Positions 156-61,803 of a stretch of 64,000 bases of DNA are shown here, piece after piece (positions within the stretch are counted from its first letter, which is position 1; each line of letters begins with the position of its first letter). This stretch comes from Shewanella sp. (GTDB lineage Bacteria > Pseudomonadota > Gammaproteobacteria > Enterobacterales > Shewanellaceae). A program made the translations under genes and the position numbers. The notes under the pieces were generated by a model. It saw only the letters and a list, made by a program, of their open reading frames with translations. It searched no databases and was not told the DNA's origin. The DNA lies in assembly GCF_013214165.1 (NCBI RefSeq), contig NZ_JABSSM010000023.1, positions 3,609 to 67,608 of the forward strand, written 5' to 3'.

Positions 156-1411
156 CGTAGCGCCTCCTTATGCTGAGTGATCATTCTCAAAAAATGTAAC
201 CGTTCTTCCTCACCTAGCATCACTGCCTGCTTACCCATAACCGTTTTATACGTGCTTGCAAACCAACTGGATATCTCATTGACCAAAGTATCTAGCCATT
301 CATCCGTGTTTTCACGTTCTTCGATAAACTCATGGTGTAACCATATTTTTTGCACGCGAGTCAGTTGTGATATCTCGCTGTTATATTGCAACTCAGAAAT
401 ACTGCGAATTGCCCACATTTTGGCAATGATTTTGTCCATCACTTCGTGAATACGCGCATCGCGACTATTACGTAATTTTTTATTGTTTTTATAATCAATT
501 TTAAAGATGCGGTGCAGCGCTTGAAACACATCCTTATATTCATAAGGTCGAAACGATTCGCTAAAAAAATTACTACGTGGAAAATGAATGGTGCGTTTTT
601 CTATTTGTGGTGGTAGTGATGACAACAGATGTGCTTTACCCCCATTTTGATTATTCAGCACGCTGATATTTTGTGGTTTAGTGCCGCCATAACCAATCGT
701 GGTTAAACCATATATTTCTGCAAAACCCTGCTCACTAAATTCATTCTTTTTCCTTAATTCTCTTAGTACTTTAACCTCGTCATTAAAACGTAAATTATCG
801 ATACGCTTTCGCAGCTGATATAACATGCCCGAATTGGTTAATAGGGAAAGCTGGTGATAGTCCTCTGCAACAGGAAAATACACTTGTTTTATTTTAGAGC
901 TGGTAACATTTTCACTGCCACTTTCCGCCATCGCGACAAAACCTGCTTTTAACTCCGTATAAGAGACTTCTTTTAGCGTCAATAACTGCGCGGCCAGTTG
1001 TGAATCATTTTGAATATGTGTGAGCAGTTGCTGGCCATCGGTCATTTCTAAGGTTAAAAATTTATACACATCCAGTGCCGCAGCGTTACCCAATGCATCG
1101 GTATCAACAACCACATTACCGCTGCGTAAAAAACCATCTATCGCACTGTCTGCGTTGGCGATAACCGAACTAACGTAGCCATTTTTATTTTTTCGAGCAC
1201 TCGGATGACTAAACGTACAGGGGTGCGTCGCCATTGAGATCTGACCCGCTCTTTTCGCCGCGTTGGGCAGCCAAGTTGATAACGAGAATACCGCTTCACA
1301 TTGTTGTTGTGTTTCTCGAATTTGAGCTTCATCCATCGAAGCCTTTAGATTTTTCTTTAACCACGCTTCTTTTCGTTCTTCAAAGAAACGGGTGATAGCA
1401 GGATCTAACAT
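152..1411 (-). CDS. csy1: Type I-F Csy1 (Cas8f)
   Basis: 419 aa; motifs ATHPCTFSHP, DALGNAAALDVYKFL, SSKIKQVYFPV, GGTKPQNIS; sits between cas2-3 and csy2. Confidence 0.95.
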   Translation of the reverse strand: MLDPAITRFFEERKEAWLKKNLKASMDEAQIRETQQQCEAVFSLSTWLPNAAKRAGQISMATHPCTFSHPSARKNKNGYVSSVIANADSAIDGFLRSGNVVVDTDALGNAAALDVYKFLTLEMTDGQQLLTHIQNDSQLAAQLLTLKEVSYTELKAGFVAMAESGSENVTSSKIKQVYFPVAEDYHQLSLLTNSGMLYQLRKRIDNLRFNDEVKVLRELRKKNEFSEQGFAEIYGLTTIGYGGTKPQNISVLNNQNGGKAHLLSSLPPQIEKRTIHFPRSNFFSESFRPYEYKDVFQALHRIFKIDYKNNKKLRNSRDARIHEVMDKIIAKMWAIRSISELQYNSEISQLTRVQKIWLHHEFIEERENTDEWLDTLVNEISSWFASTYKTVMGKQAVMLGEEERLHFLRMITQHKEALR

Positions 1412-4400
1412 TGCTCTCTCCCTATTTTCACTAATCCAAATTGATCACTGTACTCGTACTTCTCACCGTCTCTGACAACAAAACTTAATTCGCCATAACG
1501 CAGTGATACTTGCCGTCTTGTTGGTAGTACGTCTGCGTCAATGTGTGCATCTAATACATCAAGGTAATCGCGTACTAGCCATAAATTATTTCGTTCACTT
1601 GTCGATAAACTCACCGGCGTTATTTGCCATATGTTGTCGACATTGATTAAATTACCCGCGATATCTGTTATACGTAAACCTTGCTCGTCTTTCTCGGTAA
1701 AATAACAATCTTCATCATTGCTATTTGCCACTAAAAATATTTTACTACTGGGCTCACTTTGCCTAAACGAATGCAGCAGTTGTGGCATTGCCGTTAAAAA
1801 CCACGTTGAATCAAGGTAGCCTTGCAGTGCTTGTGGGCCGAGCTGGGTATATTGAGTCAGTAATGCACCTATAGCGCGATGTTCAATACCCGCTAAATGC
1901 TGGCCTTGTGATTGATCTAATTGAGTAATGCGAGGAATCGCATTGATGCCGTTTTCAAGCGCTGCCAGGTTGACAATTTTACTCAGATCATGGGTTGGCA
2001 TTGGCTTAGTTTCATAGCCTGGTCGGGTAAAATAAACACCGCCTTGTTTGTCGCCTGCTATATATGCTTGGTAGTTATATTGCATTAAGCCAATATTAGC
2101 TTGAGTCACTTCGCCTTCGCGATGACGACGAACCCGCCCTGCTAATTGCACAATAGAGCGATAAGACGACGGTTCAACTACTGCCCAGTCAAAGTCATGA
2201 TCTCGCCCAACTTCCTCTACTGGGGTGGCAACCAGAATAAAAATAATCTGCTTGGCGTTACTGTTATCAAGGTGACCACGAATAATGGCATTGCTGAACG
2301 CCTTTGGCGCTTCGCCGGCCTTTTCTTTGCGCTTTAACACTTGGTCAAGGTGCTGTTCTTGTTCATGACGCAGTAACAAAACCTGCTGGCTATGATATGC
2401 CATGACCTTGACTTCGGTATCCGCTGGAAATTCAGCACTCAACAAGTAGCGAGTTAACTCAACACAAGGAGAAATATTGGCAACCCGGACAACACCAAAT
2501 GACACCTGTTTATTTGTCAGTTCGTCAACGGTATGGTGGTGTTGATGTTTCACTAACACCGCGTCTTTAATATGCTGAAAATAAGTCTCTTGCTTGCTTA
2601 TTCCATCTGTCGATTTAGTGTTAACCCTGTTGACTTCGCACGCCACAATATGGCCTTTACGTTTCGCGGTTTGATTGGTTAGCAACTTGATACGTTTATC
2701 AATAAAGGCATCGTGGAACGATTTATATTGCGCTATGGCGGGTTCACTATCACTAGATTTGACAGTTTCAACCTGAGTATACGACTCGTCAATCCAAGCA
2801 CAGCCTATAATGGCCTGTGACTCGGTACGTGATAGGCAATATAACTGCCAGCCTTTTTTGTAGGCATTAAAATAGCCTTCAGCCAAGCTTGGGGGAATGG
2901 TGGCAGAAGATATCATCACCTTACGCCCCAGCATGCCAGCAAGGTGAATAAGTCGCCCGATGGCAATTAAATCTGAACCGGTAAAATCATCAATTTCATC
3001 AATCACCAGATCAGACGACATCAAGCGTAATGACGGTAAAATATAACGACCACCGCGTTTGGTTTCTGTTGCCGCCATGATGTGATCAATCGTGCAAGCT
3101 AAAACGGGGGCATAAAGAAACTGCTTATCTTTATTTTTAGTCAGCACTGTCGTTAGGCCACTTTCAGGAATATCACAGTCATAATCAATAAACTCATCCA
3201 GTAACGACTCTGCCGATTCAGAACCCACGGCTTCCGCTGTCAATTCTTCCTCTGCTGCTACACGCTTATTATGTAAATCAGCCACCGCTTTAGACCCAAT
3301 TAACACGGCCAGTTGGCTTTTATCCAATCCGATACGTTGTCGATATTCATCGCCAGTCTGCAAGGTCAATGTGCGTAACCCAAGCGCTAAAATATAGCGC
3401 AAACTTTGCTGATCTACCGATAATGCTCGCATCACTTTGGCGTTAGCGAAGGTTTTACCACAGCCCGTACTCGCCATATTGACCGCAAAAAAACCAAACG
3501 CTTGCTTGGACTGCTGTTGGCGCCACTCCGTTATACTTTCTACCGCTTTATCTTGCCAACGAAATGCTTTAGGACTTGGCTTTCTTAACGCTTGAATATC
3601 TTGGGCTAACGGTGGTTCAGACTCAAAGGCAGGTAATAGATGCGCGGTATCCAGTGCCACTTTAGCGACGCCCACCAAGTGCTCATCTAATTTCTGCTTT
3701 AACTGATTAGTGTCTCGGTCGGTATTAGCAAATAAACCTGTGGTATCTTGCCAACCTTTGGCAGCATCTTGAGATGAATAGTTATGATCACCTAACATCA
3801 AACACAAACGCGCATGATGTAATACTAAACGATAGCTGCCGTCGGCGATCGCCTCTTTAATTAGTGGTAATTGATGTTGTAATTGGGTCGCCCTGCGTTT
3901 AACTAACTTATTCCATTGTGGAGACTGGGTTAATAAACCTTTGGGGAATTCAAAGCATTGTTTAACCCGGGCTTGATATTCAACTTCATCTTGGCGATTT
4001 TCATAGCCCCATTCTTGACTAATCTCACCCAGCAAATCGTCTATTCGCGGAAAGTCTTCTCCGAGATATTTGTTTCTTACTGCTTTTTTATCCCAAGAAT
4101 ACAAGGGTAATCTATGGTGCGAGACGAGCAACCAAGCGATGAGTTTGGCAGCATCTGGCAGTCCTTGCAGTGGTTTGCTGATGTTTTCACTCGAGACGGC
4201 TTTAATTCGCTGTTCGTCCAACTCGCCCATAATAAGCACTTTGAGCCAGTCTTCATCGCCAGCATCACTCGAACGAACCAGTGCATTAAGCAATAAACAA
4301 GATATCCATTCGTGTCGGATCGGATCACCTTTACATTTACTTTTACTGTCTGGGTTGAGCTTATTTTGAAACAGTCGCGATGCCTTGCCCCAATCATGTA

Positions 4401-4764
4401 ACAGCGCGGCAAGTCCGGTGAGCGATTTTATTAATGGCAGATACTTCCAATCATTTTCTATTTCCATGTTTAACAAGTTTCGCTTGGTAGTATTCACTGG
4501 CACCACTCCTTCACCATTAAACTTACTCTTATTGCCCACCACCCATATAAACTGACTGCGAGCGCGTGAGCGGATCCAATGGCAGCTCACCGCGGTACTT
4601 TTACTGGCAGTTTGTCGCAGCATCTTTTTTACCGCCTGCAAGCCGTCTTCAGTGATAATGGTTTGCCAGGTATTGTCACCGATGCGATTGGCAAAGGCGT
4701 CTAACACCCGCCGGGTTTTCTTTAAGGCGTTTTTCTCGCACATTGACACGAATGTAACCATCAT
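1405..4764 (-). CDS. cas3: Type I-F Cas2-3 fusion (Cas2 domain + HD nuclease + SF2 helicase)
   Basis: N-terminal Cas2-like MVTFVSMCEKNALKKTRRVLD; HD motif LLHDWGK; Walker A ASTGCGKT; DEID box; ATPVEEVGRDHDFD. Confidence 0.97.
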   Translation of the reverse strand: MMVTFVSMCEKNALKKTRRVLDAFANRIGDNTWQTIITEDGLQAVKKMLRQTASKSTAVSCHWIRSRARSQFIWVVGNKSKFNGEGVVPVNTTKRNLLNMEIENDWKYLPLIKSLTGLAALLHDWGKASRLFQNKLNPDSKSKCKGDPIRHEWISCLLLNALVRSSDAGDEDWLKVLIMGELDEQRIKAVSSENISKPLQGLPDAAKLIAWLLVSHHRLPLYSWDKKAVRNKYLGEDFPRIDDLLGEISQEWGYENRQDEVEYQARVKQCFEFPKGLLTQSPQWNKLVKRRATQLQHQLPLIKEAIADGSYRLVLHHARLCLMLGDHNYSSQDAAKGWQDTTGLFANTDRDTNQLKQKLDEHLVGVAKVALDTAHLLPAFESEPPLAQDIQALRKPSPKAFRWQDKAVESITEWRQQQSKQAFGFFAVNMASTGCGKTFANAKVMRALSVDQQSLRYILALGLRTLTLQTGDEYRQRIGLDKSQLAVLIGSKAVADLHNKRVAAEEELTAEAVGSESAESLLDEFIDYDCDIPESGLTTVLTKNKDKQFLYAPVLACTIDHIMAATETKRGGRYILPSLRLMSSDLVIDEIDDFTGSDLIAIGRLIHLAGMLGRKVMISSATIPPSLAEGYFNAYKKGWQLYCLSRTESQAIIGCAWIDESYTQVETVKSSDSEPAIAQYKSFHDAFIDKRIKLLTNQTAKRKGHIVACEVNRVNTKSTDGISKQETYFQHIKDAVLVKHQHHHTVDELTNKQVSFGVVRVANISPCVELTRYLLSAEFPADTEVKVMAYHSQQVLLLRHEQEQHLDQVLKRKEKAGEAPKAFSNAIIRGHLDNSNAKQIIFILVATPVEEVGRDHDFDWAVVEPSSYRSIVQLAGRVRRHREGEVTQANIGLMQYNYQAYIAGDKQGGVYFTRPGYETKPMPTHDLSKIVNLAALENGINAIPRITQLDQSQGQHLAGIEHRAIGALLTQYTQLGPQALQGYLDSTWFLTAMPQLLHSFRQSEPSSKIFLVANSNDEDCYFTEKDEQGLRITDIAGNLINVDNIWQITPVSLSTSERNNLWLVRDYLDVLDAHIDADVLPTRRQVSLRYGELSFVVRDGEKYEYSDQFGLVKIGREQC

Positions 4765-4780
4765 CAGATTTAACCTACCT

Positions 4781-4948
4781 TCATTCGTTATCCAAAAAGT
4801 TTTTTATCGCTATGCTTAACTTAACCATGAATATTAGTAATTCCCCACTCCTATGCCAAGACATACGGCACCGACACTTATCAATACATCTTCTTATTTT
4901 TATTATTAAATTAAGCATCACCCTGTACACAGCACATACTATTTTCAT
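4781..4948 (-). CDS. Putative 55-aa small ORF upstream of cas2-3 (candidate toxin or leader ORF)
   Basis: GAGAGG (4963-4958) 9 nt before ATG at 4948; MKIVCAVYRVMLNLIIKIRRCIDKCRCRMSWHRSGELLIFMVKLSIAIKNFLDNE; its TGA abuts the cas2-3 RBS; no recognised family. Confidence 0.4.
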   Translation of the reverse strand: MKIVCAVYRVMLNLIIKIRRCIDKCRCRMSWHRSGELLIFMVKLSIAIKNFLDNE

Positions 4949-4995
4949 TATAAGAAGCCTCTCATCCATTAAAGAGAGCACAGCTTACCCTACCC

Positions 4996-5024
4996 GATCT
5001 AACCGATCAACCTATGTATGTCAA
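4996..5024 (-). promoter_or_regulatory. Candidate sigma70 promoter for small ORF + cas2-3/csy operon
   Basis: Perfect TTGACA at 5024-5019; imperfect -10 at 17-nt (TAGATC) or 16-nt (TTAGAT) spacing. Confidence 0.55.
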
Positions 5025-5033
5025 AAATAAAAC
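5011..5033 (+). promoter_or_regulatory. PAM + protospacer matched by the mini-array spacer
   Basis: CC (5011-5012) then TATGTATGTCAAAAATAAAAC versus spacer TATGTATGTCAAAAATATAAA; first 17 nt identical, 19/21 overall. Confidence 0.9.
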
Positions 5034-5051
5034 TGTGACTTATGAAAGATA

Positions 5052-5080
5052 GTGACGCTAACCTATCAATCCAATATAAT
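5052..5080 (+). promoter_or_regulatory. sigma70 promoter of the mini-array
   Basis: GTGACG (5052-5057), N17, perfect TATAAT (5075-5080); predicted TSS about 5085-5087. Confidence 0.75.
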
Positions 5081-5081
5081 G

Positions 5082-5158
5082 ACCAGCTGCCGCACAGGCA
5101 GCTTAGAAATATGTATGTCAAAAATATAAAGTACACTGCCGAGCAGGCAGCCTAACAG
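5082..5158 (+). CRISPR. Mini-array (pseudo-repeat / 21-nt spacer / pseudo-repeat), antisense to cas genes; CreA/CreR-like regulatory crRNA
   Basis: R1 accagCTGCCGCACAGGCAGCTTAGAAA (last 23 nt identical to array repeat); spacer 5110-5130; R2 GTACACTGCCGAGCAGGCAGcctaacag (5-bp stem intact), overlapping the cas1 stop. Confidence 0.9.
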
Positions 5159-6168
5159 CCAGCAACATTATTGCTGGCTGTTTTTTCATTAAGGGCAATG
5201 TTTTTTACCGTCTCAAACATAAAATCGAGCGCTTTATGATCGGTAAATGCTTGCAGTACTTGCTGCCTAAACTCTTGTTCGGTGAGCTTTTCTTTAGCGC
5301 AAATAAAAGCCCAAGGTAAGACGATGGCATCTTTAATCAAATCGGCAATATCAAACACCAAGGCTCCCCTTCTGGTCTTGCCGTGCATCACGGCAAAACC
5401 GTGGGGTATGCCTAATACCCATAGGGTGGTTGCCGCTAACCCATAAGCGAGATAATTACCATGATTGAGAAAGTCGTTGGCCTTGTCGGTAGACTGATGC
5501 TGACGGGTAAAGTCTGACGTGTTAGTCACATTGGCGGCAAATTTGTAGAGCTGCTTGGTGAGCTGCGCTTCGGTTAACAAGAGATCTGACGGCTTAGCGG
5601 CGGTGATCATGCGTTGATCAAAACGCTGTAATGCAGCTTCAATATTGCTATCGCTAGTCGTAAAACCTGCTAATTTAAGATCCCTGTCTTTACCCCAAAC
5701 ATGATGTAAAAATTCAATCCGTGCTTGTTGAAATTGTTTGGCGGCATCGAGTCGTTTATTGTCATCAAACCAAAAACCCATCCAACCTTGTAAGTATTCC
5801 GTAGGGCGATATTCACTTTGTGGGGTAAACCATTCAATGGCATTGCCCATGTATAACGGTGTGCCTCCGCCACCAGAAAAACCAATCAATACGCCGGCTT
5901 GTGCCAACATTCTTACCGCAGCTTGGGTGATCGACGTACCATTGCCCAGTAACAGAACCGTGGTATTGGCAATGGGAATATTGAAGTATTGGTTTTCTTT
6001 CTTTGCCTCTGTCAGATACAACACCCGACCGTCTTTTTGCATCACTCGGCAATATTCGAGGTAATAGATGTTGGCACGCTTAGAGTGCAGTATCGCTTTG
6101 AGATCTGATGATGAAAAGTTATCCAATTTATCGGCCCGTATTATATTGTTGGGTGAGTAAGGTGCCAC
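5152..6168 (-). CDS. cas1: Type I-F Cas1
   Basis: DLKAILHSKRANIYYLEYCRV, NIPIANTT, HGKTRRGALVFDIADLIKD motifs; true start probably TTG at 6126 (MDNFSSSDLK) by analogy with I-F Cas1 N-termini. Confidence 0.97.
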   Translation of the reverse strand: MAPYSPNNIIRADKLDNFSSSDLKAILHSKRANIYYLEYCRVMQKDGRVLYLTEAKKENQYFNIPIANTTVLLLGNGTSITQAAVRMLAQAGVLIGFSGGGGTPLYMGNAIEWFTPQSEYRPTEYLQGWMGFWFDDNKRLDAAKQFQQARIEFLHHVWGKDRDLKLAGFTTSDSNIEAALQRFDQRMITAAKPSDLLLTEAQLTKQLYKFAANVTNTSDFTRQHQSTDKANDFLNHGNYLAYGLAATTLWVLGIPHGFAVMHGKTRRGALVFDIADLIKDAIVLPWAFICAKEKLTEQEFRQQVLQAFTDHKALDFMFETVKNIALNEKTASNNVAGC

Positions 6169-6258: not shown

Positions 6259-7086
6259 TTAATGGTTTAAAAGCCACTTTTTGATGTCATCTTGGTTGAC
6301 TAGAATTAATTGTTGGGCCTCTGGCGTGCCGTCTAACATTTTGGTATTGACCTGCAACTCCCGCAGCAAATAACTGGCCAGTGCGGCGCGGGTGTTAATA
6401 ATGAGTTGGCCGCCTTCCATTTGATAGTCATGGGCTAGTACTGCTTTTTTTGCAGGGGATAAGCGTGGATCTGGCTGTAAAATAAGTGGGATGTAGGTTT
6501 GCCAGTCACGATCTAAGCTGGCGTCTTGGTAAGGCCCATCTACAATGTCTGCCACGCCTCTGAAGCGGCTTAATACTAGGTCACGGTATTGTTGTGATTT
6601 TTCGCAATAACCTCTTACATGCCAACGTAATCCTGTATTGACGAATGTATGAGGATGAAAAATACGCCCATCACTCTCTGGATTAGACAGGGAAATATAA
6701 TTAGTTTCCATTCGTTTACGTTGCCGAATCGCTTTTACCAGTACCCTGATAACGTCGACTGAGACTCTGCGGGTGGGCAGGGCAAGATGGCTGACGTTAG
6801 CGGTAATGGGAGAGTGTTCATGAATTTGCTTTGTGTCAAACCACTGAAGATATTGATTAATGTCTGATGACATATAGTGTGCGATAAATGTTTTACTGGG
6901 CTTAAAACCATGGCTGGTTTGAATTAAGTTATCAGGAAACTGTTCATTGTAACGTTTAAAGTCTTGATAAGCCTGTTGGCGACTGATAGCAAATTGTTCA
7001 GTGAGTTGTTTATTCGTTACAGTGCCTTCCCACCATGCGACTAGTTCAATGAACAGTTTCCTCTGTTGTAAATTATTTGTAGCCAT
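6259..7086 (-). CDS. wHTH-WYL transcriptional regulator, CapW-like
   Basis: N-terminal IELVAWWEG...FAISRQQAYQDF (wHTH); WYL core FHPHTFVNTGLRWHVRGYCEKSQQYRDLVLSRF; C-terminal PDPRLS...DYQM...TRAAL dimerisation-type segment. Confidence 0.85.
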   Translation of the reverse strand: MATNNLQQRKLFIELVAWWEGTVTNKQLTEQFAISRQQAYQDFKRYNEQFPDNLIQTSHGFKPSKTFIAHYMSSDINQYLQWFDTKQIHEHSPITANVSHLALPTRRVSVDVIRVLVKAIRQRKRMETNYISLSNPESDGRIFHPHTFVNTGLRWHVRGYCEKSQQYRDLVLSRFRGVADIVDGPYQDASLDRDWQTYIPLILQPDPRLSPAKKAVLAHDYQMEGGQLIINTRAALASYLLRELQVNTKMLDGTPEAQQLILVNQDDIKKWLLNH

Positions 7087-7297
7087 ACCCTTCCTTAGGT
7101 TGTGTACACCAGAGTCAAATATCCGGACATATGATAAGCCTATGCTTTTATTAACAACTTAACGTTTAACAATATCACATTACAGGATATTTATGGCGAA
7201 CACTAGACGGTTGTTTTTTGTTGCAGTGATAGAGCAATTAGCTGAACGTAAAAGTGAGTTGATTTAAAGAGTTGGTAAGATTAGTCACAGTTGAGGA

Positions 7298-8646
7298 TTT
7301 CTAAGCTAGCTGCGCAGCAGTGAACCGGCCGGTGCTGTTATCTAATCCTCATGTGATTTTCTAAGCTGCCTGTGCGGCAGTGAACGTATAACGTTATCGG
7401 GTCCAGGTTCCTCGAGTTTTCTAATCTGCCTGTGCGGCAGTGAACCGTAGGAGGGGCTTCAGCCCCGATGCATATAGATTTCTAAGCTGCCTGTGCGGCA
7501 GTGAACGTACCAAACAAATTTACGCTAGTCGCTAGGCTTTTCTAAGCTGCCTGTGCGGCAGTGAACACCAAACTAAACCTACAACGGCCCAGCTCGCATT
7601 TCTAAGCTGCCTGTGCGGCAGTGAACTGCTTCGCGACGCGCTGTTATGAACACCGCCGTTTCTAAGCTGCCTGTGCGGCAGTGAACCGGGTAACACTAGA
7701 AACTTTAGACTCGGTGATTTTCTAAGCTGCCTGTGCGGCAGTGAACTGAATATCGATACTCAGGCCATATTTTTGGATTTTCTAAGCTGCCTGTGCGGCA
7801 GTGAACATTATTAACGTTAAGCTCTAGGTTTTCGACTCTTTCTAAGCTGCCTGTGCGGCAGTGAACGCGGACGCTTTGCAGTGCGCATATACGCTGGATT
7901 TCTAAGCTGCCTGTGCGGCAGTGAACCGGATACTGTTCTCGAGTATTACAAAATCGACTTTCTAAGCTGCCTGTGCGGCAGTGAACCCCAGAGTCGGTGA
8001 AAGCAAAATTTTCTGGATTTTCTAAGCTGCCTGTGCGGCAGTGAACCAAGGCGGCGCACTGGTTGTTGTTGTTCGGGTTTTCTAAGCTGCCTGTGCGGCA
8101 GTGAACTGCTAGCAATTCGGCGGCGCTGTTGTCTTCTGTTTCTAAGCTGCCTGTGCGGCAGTGAATGCAGAGGCTAGACGCATAGAAGACGCTCGACTTT
8201 TCTAAGCTGCCTGTGCGGCAGTGAACCCTACAGAGTTTCTAATAGAGTCGATGCGTGATTTCTAAGCTGCCTGTGCGGCAGTGAACTAATCAGCTAACGA
8301 TAACCTCACAAGTTGAAATTTCTAAGCTGCCTGTGCGGCAGTGAACGAGATCAAAGAGTTCAATATGTTTGTCGGCACTTTCTAAGCTGCCTGTGCGGCA
8401 GTGAACGCCTATCCTCAACACTCACCCACTCGCTTTGTTTTCTAAGCTGCCTGTGCGGCAGTGAACAGGGGCGGCAGGGGCGCACGATGATGTGTACATT
8501 TCTAAGCTGCCTGTGCGGCAGTGAACAGTGTGAAGAAAAATACTTAACTTATGCTGCTTTTCTAAGCTGCCTGTGCGGCAGTGAACTAGGTGTGACATCG
8601 GTTAAATCTGCTGTGAGCTTTCTAAGCTGCCTGTGCGGCAGTGAAC
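7298..8646 (-). CRISPR. Type I-F CRISPR array, 23 repeats / 22 spacers
   Basis: 28-nt repeat GTTCACTGCCGCACAGGCAGCTTAGAAA (minus); 32-nt spacers (one of 33); degenerate terminal repeat at 7298-7325 (4 mismatches) and single-base variants at 7418 and 8139; leader on the right. Confidence 0.99.
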
Positions 8647-8790
8647 ACTAGCATAGCAGCACAAAAATAAGTTACAACAAGTCTTTAGGTAAAAAATACC
8701 TATTTAACCTTCTAAAATATGACTTGTTGTAACTGATTGTTTTTCTTGTTGATTTTTAAATAGCGAAAAATAAGGGTTAAAACCAGTGTT
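8647..8790 (-). promoter_or_regulatory. CRISPR leader with IHF-like sites and inverted repeats
   Basis: AT-rich; perfect 14-bp IR AGTTACAACAAGTC (8670-8683) / GACTTGTTGTAACT (8721-8734); AAACAATCAGTTA (minus, 8742-8730) fits IHF consensus WATCAANNNNTTR at all but one position. Confidence 0.8.
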
Positions 8791-9504: not shown

Positions 9505-9559
9505 AAAACCGTGCTAGCCTGACAGCAAGGGAGTACATAGCATCCGGAATGCACATAGT

Positions 9560-9587
9560 ATTCTAAGCTGCCTGCGCGGCGGTGAAC
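9560..9587 (-). CRISPR. Orphan type I-F repeat
   Basis: GTTCACCGCCGCGCAGGCAGCTTAGAAT, 25/28 identical to array repeat, 914 bp from the array; no second repeat at +/-60 bp. Confidence 0.85.
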
Positions 9588-36838: not shown

Positions 36839-37075
36839 TTATTGGCGGGTATAAATCTGTAGAATGAGGGTCTTGTTATTGCCTTTAAGCCACTAAGCCT
36901 TTAAAAACTGTAAAAGCCATGACAAATCAGCATAAGCATTATTGGCGGGTATAGATCTGTAGAATGAAGGTCTTGTTATTGCCACTAAGCCTTTAAAAAC
37001 TGTAAAAGCCATGACAAATCAGCATAAGCATTATTGGCGGGTATAGATCTGTAGGATAGGTGTCTTGTTATTGCC
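36839..37075 (-). repeat. Three diverged copies of the last 45 nt of the 37031 gene with a shared 47-nt linker
   Basis: Copies at 36839-36883, 36939-36983, 37031-37075; periods 100 and 92 bp. Confidence 0.95.
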
Positions 37076-37462
37076 AAATGAGAGTGTCATTGAGATGCTT
37101 TCTCCTCGTTTAAACTTCTGCTTATAGGTAAGGGGAGAGAGACGTCCGCCATCTCCCATGAGTGCCATAAGCTGATCACTTTTAAAAATTCGGCTACCCG
37201 ATGATTGATTTTCCAGGGTCACCACGGCGCGACGATCGCCTTTTTCATTACTCATCAAGATGTAATTGACCACAATAAAGTCACTAATTTTCGGCTGTAT
37301 ATCACCATCATTGGTGAAATTAAGCTCAACATCATTAGAGACGATTCTGTCGACACTAAAAACATCACTCAGCTCGTTTTCGTCTGGCTTGTTAGCGGAA
37401 AAACTACTAAAACTGATCAAGGAGGTGACCAATAATAGGCTTGTGGTTAATTGACGGTTCAA
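37031..37462 (-). CDS. Secreted hypothetical protein, 143 aa
   Basis: Signal peptide; no family recognised. Confidence 0.8.
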   Translation of the reverse strand: MNRQLTTSLLLVTSLISFSSFSANKPDENELSDVFSVDRIVSNDVELNFTNDGDIQPKISDFIVVNYILMSNEKGDRRAVVTLENQSSGSRIFKSDQLMALMGDGGRLSPLTYKQKFKRGESISMTLSFGNNKTPILQIYTRQ

Positions 37463-61670: not shown

Positions 61671-61803
61671 TAGTAGGAGAACAAATTTTTAGCCATTGAC
61701 TATGGCTGGCACCATTAATACTCATAGTAGGAGAACAAATTTTTAGCCATTGACTATGGCTGGCACCATTAATACTCCTCGCTGGCACCATTAATACTCC
61801 CTC
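61671..61803. repeat. Nested tandem duplications at upstream end of Y1 transposase element
   Basis: 53-bp unit at 61671-61723 and 61725-61777 (contains hairpin AGCCAT-TGACT-ATGGCT), plus 22-23-bp GCTGGCACCATTAATACTCC(C)TC duplicated at 61759-61803. Confidence 0.92.

Follow-up and report, generated by a model that had tools for sequence, protein, structure and literature searches.

What is a two-repeat mini-array doing between cas1 and cas2-3? The question is raised by a stretch of 64,000 nucleotides (nt) from Shewanella sp. (assembly GCF_013214165.1, contig NZ_JABSSM010000023.1, positions 3,609 to 67,608; hereafter the window), the left end of which is a type I-F1 CRISPR-Cas locus on the − strand. 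In the 387-nt gap between cas1f and cas2-3 of this locus we find two degenerate repeats, on the opposite strand, around a short spacer that matches a site in the same gap. We conclude that this element is probably an I-F1 regulatory mini-array encoding a CRISPR RNA (crRNA)-like guide (CreR/crlRNA) that autorepresses the promoter of cas2-3-csy1-4, and that it apparently reached this strain as a recombination-imported cassette.

An antisense mini-array and its target

The mini-array consists of two pseudo-repeats (ΨR1 and ΨR2) flanking a spacer-like guide (ΨS) and is antisense to cas1, cas2-3, csy1 and the main CRISPR array, all of which lie on the − strand (Table 1). ΨR1 differs from the array repeat solely in its first 5 nt, which are degenerate and would be discarded by a Cas6f cut, while no difference is seen over positions 6-28, which comprise the hairpin and the 8-nt 5′ handle (CUUAGAAA). 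In ΨR2, the 5′ bases and the 5-bp stem are kept, with one change at position 3 and a changed loop, and the eight bases past the Cas6f cut site are degenerate. Cas6f cuts at the 3′ base of the repeat hairpin. The repeat portions that would stay in the mature RNA are the best conserved and those that would be discarded the most degenerate, a pattern that fits a processed RNA. Both pseudo-repeats are matched on the + strand by the Rfam family CRISPR-DR4 (E = 2.9e-5 for ΨR1 and 0.11 for ΨR2), and the 21-nt length of ΨS falls within the 19-25 nt range of other standalone I-F1 mini-arrays. The element thus has two repeat-like sequences with Cas6f hairpins and a retained 5′ handle.

The guide matches a site close by. 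Directly after a CC protospacer-adjacent motif (PAM), 17 contiguous positions match and 19 of 21 overall, the mismatches being confined to guide positions 18 and 21. Position 18 is a non-pairing position in the Csy complex. With 19 effective matches, this site stands alone in the 64 kb: no other CC-flanked site has an effective seed above 8, and shuffling the window 200 times gave none above 12. The match between spacer and target exceeds chance. Moreover, the similarity begins exactly at spacer position 1 and there is none in the flanks; a segmental duplication taking in repeat sequence is therefore not the explanation. The match runs from the seed end of the spacer, and the PAM-flanked site lies at or beside the predicted promoter of the cas effector genes.

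On re-reading the window, the coordinates and sequences that the original prediction had given for the pseudo-repeats, the spacer and the target were confirmed, as were the orientation opposite to the cas genes and the main array and the count of 17 contiguous and 19 of 21 matches after CC. The prediction had placed the target about 50 bp upstream of the mini-array; we measure a gap of 48 nt between the end of the target and ΨR1, and the target starts 97 nt upstream of the start of the spacer.

Within the cas locus, the mini-array appears as a standalone unit that is without a leader and has its own predicted promoter-like site and terminator. The −10 hexamer (TATAAT) of the promoter-like site ends 2 nt ahead of ΨR1. 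The terminator and part of ΨR2 lie, on the opposite strand, within codons of the C-terminal tail of Cas1. The 111-nt unit folds into the two repeat hairpins and the terminator hairpin (z-score −5.0); the ΨR1 hairpin is present in both the minimum free energy and the centroid folds, and the ΨR2 hairpin also forms. We considered whether the C-terminal extension of Cas1 could be an artefact of an insertion and rejected this, as all relatives have variable tails of similar length.

We propose that the unit would be transcribed on the + strand from its own promoter to its own terminator, and that Cas6f would cut after the hairpins of ΨR1 and ΨR2 to leave an RNA of 49 nt, in which a 21-nt guide follows a normal 5′ handle. 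This RNA would assemble a shortened Csy complex, which would bind the CC-flanked target, adjoining the −35 of the predicted cas-sense promoter, and occlude that promoter. The bound complex could also act as a roadblock, on the non-template strand, to read-through from cas1. In this way cas2-3, csy1, csy2, csy3 and cas6f would come under negative feedback by their own product, and because the guide is short, Cas2-3 should not be recruited and self-cleavage should not occur. Target, two divergent promoters, mini-array and terminator would together form a portable cassette that entered the strain via homologous recombination.

Several of these steps have precedents. For the I-F1 mini-array of Pseudomonas aeruginosa YL84, the promoter was repressed with Cascade alone and there was no plasmid interference (PMC10120712). 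The mature RNAs of an I-F CreA have an 8-nt 5′ handle and a 20-nt 3′ handle and arise by Csy4-type processing (PMC10097628), and in Acinetobacter baylyi the −35 directly adjoins the CreA target (10.1101/2024.01.05.574328).

Analogous modules in other I-F1 loci

Searching genomes and metagenomes with a pattern made of the repeat 3′ end, 17-25 N and the repeat 5′ end, we found about 25 distinct standalone short-spacer mini-arrays. Nearly all of them occupy the cas2-3/csy1 gap and are antisense to the cas genes. The only other module that these scans found in a cas1/cas2-3 gap belongs to a gammaproteobacterial metagenome-assembled genome (L085). Its target (CC-TATAAAGAGT) has 10 contiguous matches, and its spacer/target pair differs from that of the window, with CC kept; between the two gaps there is no homology outside the repeats and the ends of the cas genes.

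For comparison we used the 16 modules with an assignable cognate target, counting that of the window, all from I-F1 loci and with spacers of 19-25 nt. In these, the spacer and its best CC-flanked match share a strand, the match lying 67-205 nt further upstream (67-110 nt in 13 of the 16). The window has its target at −97, and seven other modules have theirs between −95 and −105. The median is 11 for cognate matches, compared to a maximum of 8 for non-cognate ones. Mismatches occur at 36 of the 48 guide positions 6, 12 and 18 against 18 of 240 positions elsewhere (Fisher p = 3e-22), a count to be read with the caveat that the target search ignored sixth positions when extending matches, although the sites are still unambiguous. 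The mismatch rate at positions 6, 12 and 18 is close to the expectation for unconstrained bases.

The predicted promoters of most modules likewise share a register. On the cas-sense strand, the best −35-like hexamer lies 0-2 nt from the PAM in 12 of the 16 modules and reads TTGAnn in most; 11 of these 12 have a 17-nt promoter spacer, and the −10 is mostly TAnnnT. The predicted promoter of the window (TTGATC-17-TAAGCT) fits this arrangement, its −35 directly abutting the CC PAM as in most other modules. On the mini-array side, a −10-like hexamer a few nt upstream of ΨR1 is seen in most other modules too (judged by eye, unscored).

The original prediction had asked whether spacer and target co-vary while CC is kept. 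They do so across the analogous modules (no diverged homologue of the window's own module was found): the spacers differ, each has its own cognate CC-flanked target, and mismatches pile up at positions 6, 12 and 18. Together with the anatomy, the 15 analogous modules support, as a prediction, its central proposal of a Cas6f-matured 49-nt guide that would direct Csy to regulate its own locus.

In two unrelated I-F1 loci (L081 and L110) of this survey, long leaders between the target and csy1 encode open reading frames (ORFs) of ~56-70 amino acids (aa), which begin MDKRYVITE... and MNSKYVMTK.... The two ORFs may encode one and the same kind of small protein, a toxin or an accessory factor controlled by the guide.

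Table 1. Features of the mini-array, its target and the surrounding I-F1 locus (window coordinates)
Feature	Position	Strand	Details
ΨR1	5082-5109	+	ACCAGCTGCCGCACAGGCAGCTTAGAAA; 23/28 to array consensus GTTCACTGCCGCACAGGCAGCTTAGAAA
ΨS, spacer-like guide	5110-5130	+	TATGTATGTCAAAAATATAAA; 21 nt
ΨR2	5131-5158	+	GTACACTGCCGAGCAGGCAGCCTAACAG; 21/28 to array consensus
Predicted mature crRNA-like RNA	5102-5150	+	49 nt: 8-nt handle, 21-nt guide, 20-nt 3′ hairpin; predicted from the Cas6f cut site
Target	PAM 5011-5012, protospacer 5013-5033	+	CC PAM, then TATGTATGTCAAAAATAAAAC; guide would pair with the − strand
Promoter-like site of mini-array	5052-5080	+	GTGACG-17-TATAAT; 10/12 to consensus (scan)
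Intrinsic terminator of mini-array (predicted)	5154-5188	+	12-bp stem, then T run
Predicted cas-sense promoter	4982-5010	−	−35 TTGATC (5010-5005), 17-nt spacer, −10 TAAGCT (4987-4982)
AT-rich leader, predicted promoter to cas2-3 start	4765-4981	−	66-aa ORF and two promoter-like sites
Strain-variable block	4741-5212		472 nt; replaced in near-identical strains by a 78-nt compact cas1/cas2-3 junction
csy1	152-1411	−	Overlapped by cas2-3
cas2-3	1405-4764	−	Cas3f, 1119 aa; first gene downstream of the targeted promoter
cas1f	5152-6168	−	Upstream of the module; last codons overlap terminator and ΨR2
WYL/BrxR-like regulator gene	6259-7086	−	Between the upstream array and cas1
Main I-F CRISPR array	7358-8646	−	22 repeats, 32-nt spacers; source of repeat consensus GTTCACTGCCGCACAGGCAGCTTAGAAA

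Strain variation and rival explanations

The mini-array and its target lie in a strain-variable block in which the 3′ codons of cas1 and the 5′ codons of cas2-3 have diverged. Public sediment metagenomes contain both forms, with and without the module. The module form is dominant at a depth of 64 in one run and was found in a second, independent assembly too; in two other runs, the dominant contigs (depths 78 and 34) have 78 letters in place of the block. We recovered the alternative haplotype (L185), which has flanks essentially identical to the window and a compact junction like that of S. benthica KT99. The latter has the best-matching Cas1 relative (95%), and its cas1 abuts cas2-3 without the element. 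We inspected the cas1/cas2-3 gap of 80 loci around Cas1 relatives and found a repeat-like hairpin or handle in none of them; most have a compact junction. The original prediction had spoken of a Shewanella-type element, which does not agree with its absence from S. benthica KT99 and from near-identical environmental strains.

From the diverged codons at both ends of the block, we infer that homologous recombination brought it in from a diverged I-F1 locus in which this gap was already occupied by a module. The genome collection holds one genome per species, and the donor lineage may be missing from it. A 17-mer of handle and seed gave only chance matches in viral_contigs and genome_contigs, and a pattern with the CTAAGAAA handle gave only 2 matches, both irrelevant. 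Comparing the 472-nt block to phages by blastn returned nothing, and no phage copy of the guide was found.

Other observations concern the same junction. About a fifth of the related I-F1 loci have a cas1/cas2-3 junction expanded to ~130-2340 nt without any repeat (L002, 3911-4330; L051, 3975-4316; also L003, L013, L017, L021, L022, L033, L045, L050 and L078), and the two that we inspected contain sense-strand ORFs of 113-139 aa. The junction seems to be an insertion hotspot. Three independent assemblies with the same csy1 (L182, L183 and L184, at their contig starts) break within the 5′ part of cas2-3, which fits assembly collapse at the polymorphic cas1/cas2-3 junction.

Several observations weigh against an autorepressing mini-array. 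The predicted cas-sense promoter has only 7/12 matches to consensus and falls below the threshold of the promoter scan, which instead called two − strand promoter-like sites further downstream (4929-4902 and 4859-4830); if one of these drives cas2-3, repression would hit only read-through or another product. The distance from the PAM to the cas2-3 ATG is 246 nt, which belongs to a long class of modules (159-283 nt) and not to the short class of the simplest autoregulatory ones (61-76 nt), and a separate small gene would fit into it. Unlike in most modules, the target here is matched at guide positions 6 and 12, and because these still match, the spacer/target pair may be young and little tested by selection. 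In three shallow metatranscriptomes of the same study, available as contigs only, nothing falls on the mini-array. Finally, the module is missing from near-identical co-occurring strains.

The long distance and the two additional promoter-like sites between target and cas2-3 would suit a CreTA-type addiction or anti-anti-CRISPR module. There, the mini-array would be a CreA antitoxin silencing a toxic RNA or peptide in the − strand leader, cas2-3 would be read from a separate downstream promoter, and the toxin would be released when Csy is lost or inhibited. The I-F modules known so far are either autoregulators or CreA antitoxins, the latter keeping a small toxin gene between target and csy1 silent, and the characterised I-F CreTA and CrePA modules have the order ΨR1-ΨS-ΨR2, a CC-flanked target and a toxin promoter. 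Moreover, the leader contains a Shine-Dalgarno (SD)-like GAGAGG 9 nt ahead of an ATG that opens a 55-codon ORF (56 with the stop) with the run ATA ATA AAA ATA AGA AGA, and at the predicted 5′ end the first AUG lies within a 5-bp hairpin. Yet the signature of known CreT RNAs, an SD with a mini-ORF and a GC-rich hairpin, was not found: the scan detected no intrinsic terminator and no GC-rich hairpin between target and cas2-3, and the leader folds no better than its shuffles (z-score −0.58). The gap of L085, which is non-homologous, is without a comparable ORF. The original prediction had offered an addictive locus as an alternative, which is not supported, as no recognisable toxin was found in the leader. 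We regard the CreTA explanation as unlikely, although the leader may yet encode an RNA toxin of an unrecognised kind.

Two specific forms of toxicity were tried and rejected. A protein toxin is not supported by the unconserved 66-aa leader ORF (4781-4981, − strand), which has no Pfam match and no homologue among 5.8 billion proteins. A rare-codon, tRNA-sequestering role of the ATA/AGA run is unsupported as well, since neither codon is rare in the codon table of the window, a crude one in which shadow ORFs may be included.

The patchy occurrence of the module, including its absence from the closest species, and the lack of metatranscriptome contigs would also be compatible with a non-functional relic, that is, an array fragment and a local duplication carried along by recombination with no regulatory role; the agreement of spacer and target even at positions 6 and 12 is what a recent duplication would give. 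What argues against a relic is the way conservation and decay are distributed over ΨR1 and ΨR2, the start of the match at guide position 1 right after CC, and the presence of a promoter-like site and a terminator of its own. In addition, the distance of the target is typical of the family, a −35-like hexamer adjoins it just as in independent modules, and the module is dominant in at least one sample and recurs in a second assembly. We consider a relic improbable. Even less credible, to the point of being very improbable, is a genuine self-targeting spacer that would cause autoimmunity or primed adaptation against its own cas locus. The canonical CC PAM, the perfect seed and the 19 of 21 matched positions would allow it, but the guide has 21 nt and not 32, there is no leader, and the locus is found in situ in abundance and intact, with no interruption in its cas genes. 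Furthermore, the equivalent short guide of YL84 repressed its target without restricting plasmids (PMC10120712).

We also compared the element to two other known classes and assigned it to neither. Canonical adaptive CRISPR arrays have a leader, full-length repeats and 32-nt spacers of foreign origin; here the 21-nt spacer matches its own locus, the outer ends of the repeats are degenerate and the unit is antisense. Homing guides of I-F3 CRISPR-associated transposons belong to systems without cas1 and cas2-3 that are linked to tniQ and tnsABC; here Cas1f and Cas2-3 are present, in the I-F1 order cas1, cas2-3, csy1-4.

The surrounding locus, known systems and implications

The cas2-3 gene overlaps csy1, and the two therefore appear, from this arrangement, to form one operon. 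Cas1f and Cas3f/Cas2-3 score above the NCBIfam cut-offs and Csy1 is also encoded in the window, while on an identical metagenomic scaffold (L181) the operon goes on with csy2, csy3 and csy4/cas6f, followed by a second array; the I-F1 system is therefore complete. This second array (10560-10840 of L181, beyond the window) has the same repeat, lies downstream of csy4/cas6f and has the orientation of the cas genes.

The product of the regulator gene next to cas1 has 275 aa and contains a WYL domain; precomputed Pfam annotation adds a winged helix of the BrxR type and a BrxR C-terminal domain. It is likely a transcriptional regulator of the locus and would add a second control layer beside the mini-array. 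The metatranscriptomes described above contain only two small contigs of the locus, both from the sample holding the strain, one inside cas1 (5804-6009) and one at the 5′ end of the WYL gene (7037-7230). These may reflect in situ transcription, DNA carry-over being the alternative.

Further repeats and duplications were noted. In run X1, contigs covering 7500-8760 show many alternative joints within the main array, with differing spacer sets, and the leader-side sequence 8652-8751 occurs in two equally deep alleles; the array is therefore variable among co-occurring strains. At 9555-9582 on the − strand, ~900 nt upstream of the array and directly past pyrI, there is a single degenerate repeat (GTTCACCGCCGCGCAGGCAGCTTAGAAT, 25/28 to consensus, one stem mismatch). 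A second repeat and a CC-flanked target for the sequence adjoining it were sought in the window and none was found. The window also contains tandem duplications at 36889-37076 (92 nt, 2 copies, 95% matches) and 61671-61777 (54 nt, 2 copies, 100%).

The class to which the mini-array probably belongs is already known, its antisense layout, short spacer, CC PAM and sixth-position mismatches having been published (PMC10120712; 10.1101/2023.03.10.532045). The I-F1 regulatory mini-arrays of Shmakov et al. 2023 (PMC10120712) also have two repeat-like sequences with conserved spacer-proximal parts and a degraded distal repeat, are antisense to the cas genes, and carry a short spacer with a CC PAM. As here, every-sixth-position mismatches are tolerated, the target lies at the downstream cas promoter and the elements are patchy among near-identical loci. 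However, the published cases control the csy (Cascade) operon from the gap between cas2-3 and csy1, whereas the module described here lies between cas1 and cas2-3, with its terminator and a portion of ΨR2 overlapping the region of the cas1 stop. Unlike in those cases, the overlap of cas2-3 with csy1 would bring the nuclease-helicase under the same feedback. In P. aeruginosa, a survey found such genes "almost always" between cas2-3 and csy1.

Related systems show the same elements in other combinations. CreR (Liu et al. 2023, 10.1101/2023.03.10.532045) is likewise a degenerate mini-CRISPR with a site next to the −35 of an effector promoter, and acts through limited guide complementarity in an autorepression that senses free effector. 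The CreR experiments cover I-B, I-E and V-A only, the I-F examples there being predictions, and the complementarity is partial over a long guide, whereas here it is nearly complete over a short one. The I-F CreTA and CrePA modules (Acinetobacter WCHA45, PMC10097628; A. baylyi ADP1, 10.1101/2024.01.05.574328; P. aeruginosa CreTA1/2, 10.64898/2026.06.02.729485) share with the window ΨR1-ΨS-ΨR2, the CC PAM and a target at or beside a promoter inside an I-F cas operon. They sit in the cas3-csy1 gap, in contrast to the cas1/cas2-3 gap here, and have a recognisable toxin downstream of the target (SD, mini-ORF and hairpin, or a KilAC protein), while none is recognisable in the window. Phage Cracr and regulatory mini-arrays (10.1101/2024.10.29.618823; PMC10120712) also use short-spacer guides, aimed at I-F cas or creT promoters; those are phage- or plasmid-borne anti-CRISPRs, whereas the element of the window is chromosomal and inside a cas operon.

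The original prediction knew of no description of such an element. Its novelty is removed by the antisense, short-spacer, CC-targeting I-F1 mini-arrays validated in P. aeruginosa YL84 (PMC10120712), and further by the characterised I-F CreA and CreTA systems (PMC10097628; 10.1101/2024.01.05.574328; 10.64898/2026.06.02.729485). The locus reveals no new mechanism; what is unusual here is the position upstream of cas2-3 and the strain-level behaviour of the cassette.

A more far-reaching reading, which we put forward only tentatively, is that of a portable, self-contained autoregulated promoter cassette that moves between I-F1 loci through homologous recombination and, from its position between cas1 and cas2-3, uncouples cas1 adaptation from interference and places Cas2-3 under guide feedback in addition to the Csy surveillance complex; the leader might then hide a new CreT-like RNA toxin. 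To our knowledge, guide-RNA feedback on Cas2-3 in such an arrangement has not been characterised experimentally for type I-F. If true, the interference nuclease would be co-regulated with the effector and cas1 would stay outside the loop.

The co-occurring environmental strains provide evidence that such modules are gained or lost as discrete cassettes, and the near-random mismatch rate at positions 6, 12 and 18 is an independent evolutionary signature of guides working through Csy. More generally, interest in CRISPR-Cas systems that regulate themselves through degenerate mini-CRISPRs is recent and active; the topic bears on the control of their cost, the avoidance of autoimmunity, the sensing of anti-CRISPRs and hijacking by phages.

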